Assembly: GCA_044892525.1 (NCBI GenBank)
Contig: CM097885.1
Location: 1 to 64,000 of the forward strand
DNA: 64,000 nucleotides
Direction: 5' to 3'
DNA from: Schmidtea polychroa
Lineage: Eukaryota
Shown: positions 20,701 through 24,000 of the stretch, piece by piece
Layout: each line of letters begins with the position of its first letter
Numbering within the stretch: position 1 is the stretch's first letter
Made by a program: the position numbers and the translations under genes
Notes under the pieces: generated by a model
The model's input: the letters and a program-made list of their open reading frames with translations, nothing else
What the model was told of the DNA's origin: nothing
Databases searched by the model: none

Positions 20701-21044
20701 CTGGTACTAGAGAACAATATAATGACAAAAGGCGAATCCTCACACTAGAGCTCAACGAAGAGGGAACACTACTATGCACATACATATGTAAGAAAAACCC
20801 CTGTGATATACATATGACTGTGAAGACCACCGCCAATGACATACTCAAACACATTTCTACAAAACACAAAAGTAAAGTATTTGACCAGACCACAAACATC
20901 AAATGCCACTGTGGTGAAACAATAAACTTTGATAATATGAAACAACACCACCACTCACACATGGGAATACTTGAACCCACTGAAATAAACAATGAACCCC
21001 CCACAAACATCCCAGTAACCACCAAAGACATAGACTCCGACTGA
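17733..21044 (+). CDS. Retrotransposon ORF1: long Asn/Thr/Pro low-complexity region, then about four C2H2-like zinc fingers (first ATG at 17745)
   Basis: 1103-aa ORF; CRMKNC..HMKSMH, CLIC..HWLDYH, CTYIC..HISTKH, CHCG..HHHSH. Confidence 0.8.
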   Translation: MRRQMTLEHRDTTTPPHDLDYGHGPGRQMAAAHRITTPPSCDLDCQDISGRGFVDGRDAGGVMNGYDNYDYSNKNKSIIYNANQTNMRGKNNDYYPHDSHIKKSTYGFASPNMPAESNSPSKCFNNEKQNTSYVNGRPLNEKAYYLDTPDLPNSDETMRINELNAKIIDKINNNNQTYANNYLLPHPSSAQYDERSAPIKINPPSYKEKLINRINKNNAHEDRINEDYIRKYSLHNDTKYYDYNKECNTHIDNSKKYYCPDEYSYFCENRSAKNGENKFKLINNDNNNIFKQHIYNNDISNSEYNNNKKHNLNNENYKSNNSKNPKNKYNNKFIINNTLNYNLNQIENEFYNFKLKLDNSLINFKYKIGNLFKLPKQFPFLKNNDFQNFSCPSGKKNKPLRSSSACGRFAGSRTNNDDDETTKNDLTIDLTAEPLPNNNINDQHAEIPNTKISNNTFRREIKTLSKHFWTMFHKDPTYINILKDYNNELNNYNEDDQPIPLTNNTTMNVPTLPITNNNDNTLSKTQANKNDKYETTPSLTNNRFHALATINNDPKVNSITDANPPAPSNYNIPTSTTNSTTNVPQPHSISPPTKPIETQSSPIKANQSNTIQSTTKPPTYTTPLNTCNNNTETTIHSSPNKDTNITHNKRDKHLIQEIHRIINCNNQEISKKHETTTKNLQQYIIQQQHEQANTHETLALLISQMTKLQQQLLTHNTAASSQLPHDIDDVHLTLTPKDDDLNIPPQFHQPEPSDNESNDSQSEDDNDGYITEIERQIHVNNKVDIDETPTQQTPSQYEQINNTQQEQTIQRTTSSSGSLFSPMENITPVDLNDPFNMYHALDVLHIKDFAIVKDIMKTPPAPDTQTSESSTNTPNPLYNLLNTNEQPVTQNLTTIDSPFTLKKQALFKLGSEGYLKCRMKNCKHGKIGPLMEDKQHEHMKSMHDRIIKDTDTFECLICQRQRKKGQNQTKFLLTNIEEHWLDYHPEKQIPGTREQYNDKRRILTLELNEEGTLLCTYICKKNPCDIHMTVKTTANDILKHISTKHKSKVFDQTTNIKCHCGETINFDNMKQHHHSHMGILEPTEINNEPPTNIPVTTKDIDSD

Positions 21045-21071
21045 CTAAACCAGCACCAGATCTCCGCATAC

Positions 21072-24000
21072 ATGCTAACACATGCAACTACTGAAAACAC
21101 TATATACATAGATAGCTTTATAGGACTTGCATGCATTGAAAAACACTTCCAAACCTTTTTTTCTGCCTTCCCATTTCATAAATATCCTACATGGATAGAC
21201 CTAATTTGGCCCATCAACATCGAAAGGAACCTCTGGATACTCTTTTACATAAATAAAAAACGTAACCTTGCCACAATTATTGATCCCACCTGCCAAATTA
21301 GCACCATGAAACATTACAACACAGCAACAACTATACTCAACATACTGACCAACCTCCAAAACATAATAACCACAAATGATTTCACCTTACAAGAACTAAC
21401 ATATCCAAGATGCAATGAAACAAAGCAATCAGGATACTACATATGCCACTTTGCCAAATGCCTAGCCTCCAACAGATGCATCACACTCCCCGACATACAA
21501 AACATACGCACAGACCTTAACAAAATAATAAACCTAATAATATATAGAAGGAAAGCAACTGATGACGTGACCAGATATACCGCATTCATTGATGACATAA
21601 TTATCCAGCTTGACACTAATACTATTCATGTTGATGAGAGCCTCGTAGAAATTGCCAAGATACATGAAGCTATATACCCCAACAAATACAAAAGTAAAAC
21701 AATACCAATAAACATCCTCAACTCAAAAGACACTAAGCGATTAGTATTCGAGCTACGACTAGACTTTGATAGAAGACCAAAAGCAACAATTGAAAAAATA
21801 CTCAACAAAAATGAAAACACAACGACCACACCGACAGACGATGACATCTACAAAAACTTCCAAACCACAACAAAACACATAACTAAATATAGTACACCAG
21901 ATACACAACCCTCATACATTGACCTTATATCAGATAAACCCATAACAGACACAGAACTCAACGAATCCATACTCAAACTTGACAGCACATCAGCCCCAGG
22001 TAGTGACAAAATCACATACAAAGAGTGGAAAAAGATAGACCCGAAAAACAAATTTAGACTGGCACTTTTTAACAACATACTACGCAATGGACATAGTCCC
22101 AAAACGTGGAAAACCTTTAGAACGAAACTCATCCTTAAACCAGGCAAAGAGCAATCACCGCATGAAGTATCATCCTGGAGACCGCTTGCTATACTGGACT
22201 CAGCATATCGCACATTTGCCTCAATCATGAATGATAGACTTTTCTCCTGGATTCAGCTAGGACACCTGTTGAGCACTAACCAGAAAGCGGTGGGAACTCC
22301 GGATGGATGCGCTGAACATAACACAGTTATCAGTCTCGCCAAGGAATGTGCAATGAGAAATGGGACGGATATTAATATCATCTGGCTGGACCTTGCGGAT
22401 GCTTTTGGTAGCCTTCCGCATGACCTTATTTGGCATACCCTGTCGAGACTGAAACTGAAGGCAAAAACAATCAATCTTATTAAAGAAATGTATACTGACT
22501 GCTACTCAATATACGAATGCGAGGACCGACGATCAAGGGAGATACGGATAAACAATGGAGTCAAGCAAGGCTGCCCAATGTCTATGACTCTGTTCAGCCT
22601 CTCCATTGACTATATCCTCCAGAAAATCCTCAAACAACACCCACTTGTTATAGATGGACACAATATAAGCATAATGGCATATGCAGATGACATTGTCATG
22701 ATCTCCAACACACGGCAAGAAATAGGTAACATGTTACGAACTATAGTTGAACTCTCTGACATATCTCACCTTAAATTCAGACCCTCTAAGTGCGGCTACT
22801 TCCAACTACAACGAAACCACAAAGAGATACCCCTAACTATATACAAGGAAAAAATACCCATCATTGATCACGACAACATATATAAATACCTAGGAGTTGA
22901 CTTCGGCCAGAAAGGCAAACATGACATTGACAACACACTCATAAAAGCGATTGATGACACGACAAAAATAATGACCTCTGACCTACACCCAGCACAAAAA
23001 CTTCAAGCATACAAGACTTTCATACACTCTAGACTAATATTTCCATTCAGAAACTGTACAATCAACAACATGATTCTTGACAGCAACAGAAACAAAGTAG
23101 TACAAAATAGACCCAAACAATTAGGATATGACCAAAAAATAAAGAGAATATTAAAAGATACACTAGATGATATACACCAAAACATTAATAACAACTTCTT
23201 TTATGCACATTGTAAACTAGGAGGTCTCGGCATAGTGCCTAGTATAGATGAATACATGATACAAGGCATCACACACATCATCAAAATACTACACACACGA
23301 GACACTAGCATGAGGGAATTCATAATCCAGCAAATGATAGCAGTAGCCAAAATACGATTTAAACACACCACAATAGACATACACCAAACACTACGCTGGA
23401 TTAATGCAGACATTAAAGGTGACATAAGTGGACCAGCAACTGTATTCGGAAAATTTCGGTCTGCCATAAAAAGAATGAATGAGAAATTCGGCATCAAAAT
23501 CACACTGACACTTGACAACAACAAATACATACTACTCCTGAAAACAAAAGACTACACCATATATATTAACGACACAAACCTCACAGAAACCTCTGCCAAA
23601 CTACATGAAATCACAAGTGAATGGTATGCAGATCAATGGTACCAGATGACATGTCAAGGATACATTTCTAGGACCATAGGCGCAAATAGACAATCAGCAC
23701 ACCTAATCAAATCACACACCCTGACAGATAAACAATACATATTTCTCATTAAAGCAAGAAACAACATGATAAGCCTCAACTATAGTGCATACAGAATGAA
23801 AGAAAACATGAATACAAAATGTAGGCTCTGTAATGCTGAACCAGAAACACAAGCACACATATTCAATCACTGCCTCAAAACAACAAATGCTAGGAGAAAC
23901 AAACACAATAAGGTCATGGATAAAGTTAGCGGGTATCTCATTTCGAAAGGTTTCCAAGTTGACGTAGAACGCCCACCCCCCGGAATAGACACTAGGCTAA

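Follow-up and report, generated by a model that had tools for sequence, protein, structure and literature searches.

Retrotransposons of the R2 group, which lack long terminal repeats (non-LTR) and carry a restriction-like endonuclease (RLE), are described as having one open reading frame (ORF) in the available part of PMC3636483. NeSL-1 and Utopia-1_TSP each encode one protein, in which N-terminal zinc fingers (ZnF) and a Ulp1-like domain precede the reverse transcriptase (RT), a further ZnF and the RLE, and LIN24_SM and LIN26_SM of Schmidtea mediterranea have been placed in the R5/LIN lineage (PMC4640811, available sections). This planarian lineage of the NeSL clade (LIN24_SM, LIN26_SM, LIN9_SM and R5) also has an RT followed by a ZnF and an RLE; in the sections available to us we found no description of how its ORFs are joined or of a Ulp1 domain. 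For the translation of ORF2 in non-LTR elements, reinitiation in L1 and SART1 and StopGo in L1Tc are documented (PMC5972666, available sections). The hexamer UGACUA is, in turn, the type II viral readthrough motif (PMC13517186, available sections), and in MDH1 UGA CUA gave 4.3% readthrough with insertion of Trp and Arg and no need for downstream sequence (PMC5133446, available sections). Here we describe an R5/LIN-like element in 64,000 nucleotides of Schmidtea polychroa (contig CM097885.1, positions 1 to 64,000; "the window" denotes this whole stretch) that shares the domain order of NeSL-1 and Utopia-1_TSP but differs in having its frame split by a UGA at a Trp position, a far longer ORF1 and a dead protease. 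We infer from the sequence that programmed UGA-CUA readthrough probably yields an abundant ORF1 protein and a rare fusion of 2205 amino acids (aa).

One frame, one UGA

The element is 8.45 kb long and sits antisense within a 28S rRNA gene, the tandem ribosomal DNA (rDNA) being on the minus strand of the window. Comparison with the uninterrupted rDNA unit shows that about 3 bp (AAT) are common to both insertion junctions. Target site and antisense orientation match those of LIN24_SM and LIN26_SM, with the 3' junction within 3 nt, and the 28S sequence around the insertion site has unusual letters in common with the planarian 28S (S6 Fig of PMC4640811, available sections), which makes a triclad host probable. 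We assign the element to R5/LIN by this target site and orientation; our RT tree holds unnamed relatives only. It is a new member of a known lineage, the R5/LIN-like RLE retrotransposons. The insertion lies about 85 nt upstream of the R2 site and is not at the R5 site proper, which we take to be 8 bp upstream of the R2 site. As in the R2 group, the RT is followed by a CCHC finger and an endonuclease motif that we take to be PD-(D/E)xK, and no terminal repeats were found inside the element. The single ORF of that group is represented here by one frame interrupted by an in-frame TGA.

From 21030 the sequence reads ATA GAC TCC GAC TGA CTA AAC CAG CAC CAG ATC TCC GCA TAC ATG. The open stretches on either side, 17595-21044 (1149 aa between stops) and 21045-24362 (1105 aa), share one frame, and the TGA is the only break between ORF1 and ORF2. 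Reading it as Trp gives 2255 residues with a single recoded step, and the fusion from the first ATG, 17745, through the TGA is 2205 aa long. Thus, the arrangement reported in a preliminary description of this DNA, two in-frame ORFs with a single UGA-CUA between them, is confirmed. That description had also put the stop at the Trp of a Ulp1/SENP motif, and this too holds: the stop falls in the column of the first conserved Trp of Ulp1 domains, at a predicted linker/domain boundary. In S5 Fig of PMC4640811 the Ulp1/NeSL alignment begins at this column, with Trp in 17 of 22 rows and, among the Utopia/NeSL rows, at or beside it in 11 of 12. The TGA-CTA context is only suggestive from the window copy, because CTA makes up 44 of the 165 Leu codons of the element. 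TGA is followed by CTA in 3 of its 171 TGA triplets, counted in any frame.

A distant relative, other copies and the wider clade

When metagenomes were scanned with ten aligned ORF2 proteins, 80 loci came up, and one of them (L080) is a full-length relative with 30% identity over ORF2 residues 21-1087; it is also the only locus with a Ulp1 region among all 159 loci fetched. Its upstream frame is open through the zinc fingers to the contig end and is broken once, ...ETDIVGNS*LDGRVIELYIRY, by a stop whose DNA reads AGT TGA CTA GAT (hexamer at L080:762-767). There is no other stop or shift in 1405 codons. MAFFT places the stops of the window element and L080 in one alignment column, 64 and 65 residues before a His-Trp motif, and within 63 nt around the stop the longest run that the two share is TGACTA, with one flanking identity further on. 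The probability that a single random nonsense change would fall on this codon as TGG>TGA is about 0.003-0.004, and Leu is encoded by CTA in 30 of 160 cases in L080 against 44 of 165 in the window (19-27%). Since L080 has the same TGA-CTA, a chance origin of the context appears unlikely.

A true stop, followed by separate synthesis of ORF2 through termination-reinitiation or internal initiation at ATG 21072 or a near-cognate codon, has precedents in the reinitiation of L1 and SART1 (PMC5972666) and in Tca2 (PMC2194720), both known to us from the available sections. L1 has also been reported to use unconventional initiation, which would allow a non-AUG start, and in the window an in-frame ATG does lie nine codons after the stop; gene-caller starts of the related proteins P0186 and P0032 lie five or six codons beyond the stop. 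However, no AUG is conserved. The first AUG of L080 comes 68 codons after the stop, beyond the catalytic His, and the product from it scores 14.9 bits, below the Pfam cut-off, versus 33.9 bits from the stop; the starts of other relatives scatter. In addition, the residues between the stop and ATG 21072 keep the Ulp1 helix pattern and vary synonymously, and a clean stop would have no need to remain UGA-CUA and in frame at 30% protein identity. We therefore regard separate initiation of ORF2 as unlikely. An altered code is the least probable of the explanations we considered: a host reading UGA as Trp throughout its genome would account for a stop at a Trp position, but the window element and L080 encode every other Trp (15 and 17, respectively) by TGG, neither has another in-frame TGA, and 5 of 17 other long ORFs checked end in TGA. 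Insertion of selenocysteine, which we rate equally low, meets the objection that the site is not a Cys position.

To compare copies, we used contigs from four public runs (X1, X5, X8 and X9) of four studies over 20700-21500. X1, X5 and X8 cover the stop site and X9 does not; the substitutions given here are the best-ranked 40, ahead of 243 lower-ranked rows, and each of them makes up about 48% of depth or more in at least one run. Variants at 21038, 21053 and 21062 in X5 (depth 708) and X8 (depth 101 at 21038) mark diverged copies, and among these best 40 rows neither run has a substitution at 21042-21047. The preliminary description had proposed checking whether most copies have TGG; in the contigs of three studies this is not so among the rows considered, and a TGG majority is unlikely. 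Of the 40 substitutions, 28 are synonymous against 20.5% expected (ORF1, 12/19; stop to first ATG, 2/2; ORF2, 14/19), so there is purifying selection on both sides of the stop. No joints indicating splicing across the stop were found in the contigs of the four runs. Judging from the compared sequences, the stop is not a mutation private to one copy.

These results bear on the other possibility raised at the outset, an inactivating TGG>TGA mutation in the window copy or its family. TGG>TGA is a common transition, the window Ulp1 domain is degenerate, and decayed copies do exist, as reflected in 12 of the 13 listed indel rows, among them an additional A following 21046 in one contig of X5 (depth 41). 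However, a dead ancestor cannot have given rise to elements as divergent as the window element and L080, and transposition must therefore tolerate the break. The same codon and the following CTA recur at 30% identity, the frames are otherwise intact over 2204 (window) and 1405 (L080) codons, selection acts on both sides of the stop, and TGA is the majority state in three studies. Decay is thereby strongly argued against and largely refuted, and we give it very little weight.

We then placed the element among its relatives, collected by a HMMER search with the read-through junction and by an ORF2 search. In a quick RT tree of 80 of 187 BLAST rows (at least 300 residues covered), less 11 near-duplicates, 11 clusters group with the window element and L080 in one clade (SH-aLRT 99). 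Counting five short clusters placed by similarity, 16 clusters, each represented by its longest member, have a Ulp1 region next to the RT; the fragments P0038, P0040, P0046, P0048 and P0055, which have no Ulp1 region, were left out. Fourteen of the 16 begin after the stop column, either 17-60 residues ahead of the His-Trp anchor or beyond it, and many of these are on contigs with 2-5 kb to spare. In the sister clusters P0029 and P0192, on the other hand, a single open frame leads from zinc fingers across the site, with Glu or Lys at the stop position. Hence the Trp, although conserved as first described, is not indispensable. The cluster starts fit a clade-wide break with one loss, and we lean slightly toward the view that the whole clade has programmed UGA-CUA readthrough, at the Ulp1 domain's first Trp, as the only route to its RT, with a signal that persists at about 30% protein identity and that one subclade has lost.

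The more distant multi-Ulp1 elements P0009, P0049, P0050, P0059 and P0060 have Trp at the site in an open frame. Because Trp is found there in these elements and in most NeSL and cellular Ulp1 proteins (PMC4640811 S5 Fig), TGG is, by this comparison, the ancestral codon. A-to-I editing of UGA to UGI, read as UGG, in some transcripts would restore exactly this Trp by one A>G change, and the element is antisense to an rRNA gene, whose transcripts could give double-stranded RNA. Against editing, local folds of the window element and L080 show the stop as unpaired or marginal, the conserved CUA is left unexplained, and no A>G at 21044 is among the listed rows of X8, a run only guessed to be RNA. 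We consider editing a very improbable explanation, if marginally less so than decay.

Other searches added little to the clade. A word-based, and hence weak, search gave no fused homologues of 1240-3947 aa with the junction region. A single ORF2 query found nothing in metagenomes, viral contigs gave nothing, and neither did a P0186 query; genome contigs yielded only distant RTs among 79 loci. In the ESM Atlas the top cluster is an RVT_1 family of 1011 aa, 28% of whose 50 members carry Peptidase_C48. Separately, we observed that the sister lineages P0009, P0045, P0049, P0050, P0059, P0060 and P0195 have two or three tandem Ulp1-like domains before the RT and that several of these proteins begin only 10-70 residues before the first Ulp1, a hint of a different ORF1/ORF2 junction.

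The Ulp1 domain scores above the Pfam cut-off in both the window element and L080. Alignments of the window domain show the changes His>Leu, Gln>Cys and Cys>Ser, so that the catalytic His and Cys of C48 peptidases are replaced by Leu and Ser; L080 and 12 of the 16 clusters have both residues, two clusters lack the Cys, and two start past the His. An AlphaFold model of the L080 domain with Trp at the stop (8-sequence alignment, mean pLDDT 83) best matches yeast Ulp1 1euv_A (Z 17.3, rmsd 3.1, 180 residues aligned). In this model residues 1-15 are disordered, order begins at residue 16, the stop position, and a helix spans residues 19-29. This implies that termination would release the ORF1 protein at the domain boundary and that the residues after the stop belong to the fold. 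Because the window domain has Leu and Ser in place of the catalytic His and Cys, protease activity is evidently not what preserves the stop in this element. We also note that catalytic residues have been lost in the window (His, Cys) and in P0032/P0181 (Cys), yet the domain is under purifying selection; a non-catalytic SUMO-binding or structural role is possible.

Anatomy of the element and its surroundings

The coordinates of the features are collected in Table 1. The last approximately 200 aa of ORF1 hold four Cys/His zinc-finger-like motifs, read from the translation, the last of which aligns with L080 and P0029; the whole ORF1 gave no Pfam match at E<=1. In ORF2 a zf-RVT match at residues 885-946 is below the Pfam cut-off. 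The (TTA)319 array lies 470 bp before the element end rather than as a tail, and the rDNA spacers of both units contain arrays like it, at 496-934 and 13966-14389.

Table 1. Coordinates of the retrotransposon, its parts and other genes in the window.
Feature	Position	Strand	Remarks
Full-length RLE-type non-LTR retrotransposon (R5/LIN-like)	17411..25862	+	Delimited against the uninterrupted rDNA unit
ORF1, 1099 aa, Asn/Thr-rich low complexity, then zinc fingers	17745..21041	+	First ATG 17745
UGA-CUA, in frame, in the column of the first Trp conserved among Ulp1 domains	21042..21047	+	Proposed readthrough site
ORF2, 1105 aa, Ulp1-RT-endonuclease	21045..24362	+	Same frame as ORF1
Ulp1/SENP (Peptidase_C48) domain, catalytically degenerate	21045..21560 (end approximate)	+	Pfam PF02902, 26.2 bits, above the cut-off of 20.7
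First in-frame ATG, 9 codons beyond the stop (-3 T, +4 C)	21072..21074	+	Not conserved in L080
Reverse transcriptase core, ORF2 residues 367-618, YADD	22143..22898	+	Pfam RVT_1, E 4e-30
C-terminal CCHC zinc finger and restriction-like endonuclease (RPDL...ILDIK, a PD-(D/E)xK-type motif read from the translation)	23697..24362	+	Ends at TAA 24360-24362
(TTA)319 array within the 3' untranslated region	24428..25385	+	About 470 bp of unique sequence separate it from the 3' junction
Double jelly-roll capsid	38928-40214		Polinton/Maverick-like set
Integrase with phospholipase A2-like domain	40244-41653		Polinton/Maverick-like set
A32-like ATPase	41665-42456		Polinton/Maverick-like set

Several other features of the window lie outside the element. 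The R2 target at about 4060-4075 (28S, minus strand) reads TTCAGG-TAGC, and no copy of what we take to be the canonical target, TTAAGG-TAGC, is present in the window; the variant may mean a divergent rDNA type. Upstream of the second 18S gene (29297-33300) the spacer and its counterpart in the first unit differ, with about 84% identity, subrepeats of 17 bp and a duplication of 1188 bp, and it is there that the rDNA array meets other mobile elements. A Polinton/Maverick-like gene set occupies 38928-46908 and 60641-64000, part of it repeated as a 99% identical inverted copy. Two inverted, interrupted ORF sets at 47626-51875 and 56264-60529, about 70-80% identical, encode N-terminal C2H2 fingers (the only Pfam matches) and, by their motifs, resemble protein-primed DNA polymerase B genes. 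LTR-retrotransposon fragments lie at 35890-38079 and 52550-54997, with an RT-RNase H-integrase pol at 36241-38079 and a DUF1759 ORF, which we take to be typical of BEL/Pao elements.

Proposed translation and its place among known systems

In the R5/LIN-like clade, then, the coding region would be one frame with a programmed leaky stop. Ribosomes would start at ORF1 and mostly end at the UGA, releasing a zinc-finger protein of about 1100 aa at the linker/domain boundary, while a few percent would insert Trp (or Arg/Cys) through a near-cognate tRNA, favoured by the CUA context, and continue into a 2205-aa ZnF-Ulp1-RT-ZnF-RLE protein for target-primed reverse transcription. The ORF1 protein would thereby be in excess over the RT, as in the gag:gag-pol ratio of retroviruses or at the alphavirus opal codon, and one subclade would have swapped the stop for a sense codon, as happened in alphaviruses. 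Lying antisense to an rRNA gene, the element would presumably need a transcript of its own. The preliminary description had proposed programmed readthrough, and the TGA-CTA at the same codon of L080 supports that proposal while leaving it an inference.

As in type II readthrough, the UGA-CUA of the element is in frame, and stop and context are conserved while the coding sequence stays under selection, as seen in two lineages as DNA and in the 28 synonymous variants of the 40 listed. The hexamer is identical to those of the alphavirus opal codon, MDH1x and LDHBx. In alphaviruses, as here, the polymerase lies downstream of the leaky stop, and some relatives have a sense codon (CHIKV, CGA; table in PMC13517186, available sections), like P0029 and P0192. 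What differs is that the RNA carrying the signal is that of a retrotransposon, with readthrough deduced from its sequence. Gammaretroviruses and Candida Tca2 likewise have a single in-frame stop between an abundant structural ORF and the enzymes, but these are LTR elements, whereas the window element has no LTRs, and murine leukemia virus uses UAG plus a pseudoknot rather than UGA-CUA.

Several observations weigh against programmed readthrough or its extension to the clade. The stop is seen as DNA in only two lineages, the window element and L080. The identical X1 contig (depth 151, spanning 20700-21214 without any difference) may come from the source sample itself, and copies with TGG may still exist as a minority. 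At +7 the window has A, not G. A 3' structure accompanies many viral type II cases, although MDH1 does not need one, and we found no conserved 3' stem-loop in the window and L080 (150-nt folds, z -0.33 and -1.77, respectively). The 14 downstream starts are choices of gene callers in sequences known as proteins; five of the 14 starting clusters (P0034, P0047, P0176, P0042 and P0194) are outside the tree, and internal starts are seen in the two fused clusters as well (members P0004, P0037 and P0193). No ORF1 homologue ending at the site was found in a search with a 3-row zinc-finger alignment. With the window Ulp1 catalytically dead, any function of the fusion junction in this copy would not be proteolytic. 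Lastly, the in-frame UGA junction of Tca2 failed to direct readthrough in a reporter (PMC2194720, available sections), which warns that an in-frame UGA does not always act as a readthrough signal driven by its context.

Both the kind of recoding and the lineage are known; their combination we did not find in print. Our literature search, whose coverage leaves out Repbase and most subscription papers, brought up no report of readthrough in non-LTR elements, R5/LIN included. R5 was reportedly described with two ORFs by Burke et al. in 2003, and that work or Repbase may already mention the in-frame stop.

Production of a second protein by non-LTR retrotransposons is known from few cases, and a conserved leaky stop would add a virus-like route. 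If it holds for the clade, non-LTR elements would have a mode of ORF2 translation not described before, and database "ORF2" proteins of about 1100 aa would be N-terminally truncated predictions of fusions of about 1400-2200 aa. Site-specific RLE elements are mined as gene-insertion tools, and similar copies would be dropped as broken or expressed without their N-terminal zinc fingers. The signal comprises six nucleotides and is directly testable. Taken together, this arrangement would represent an intermediate between one-ORF RLE elements and two-ORF elements, in which one codon change provides an abundant ORF1 protein while the fusion is kept.

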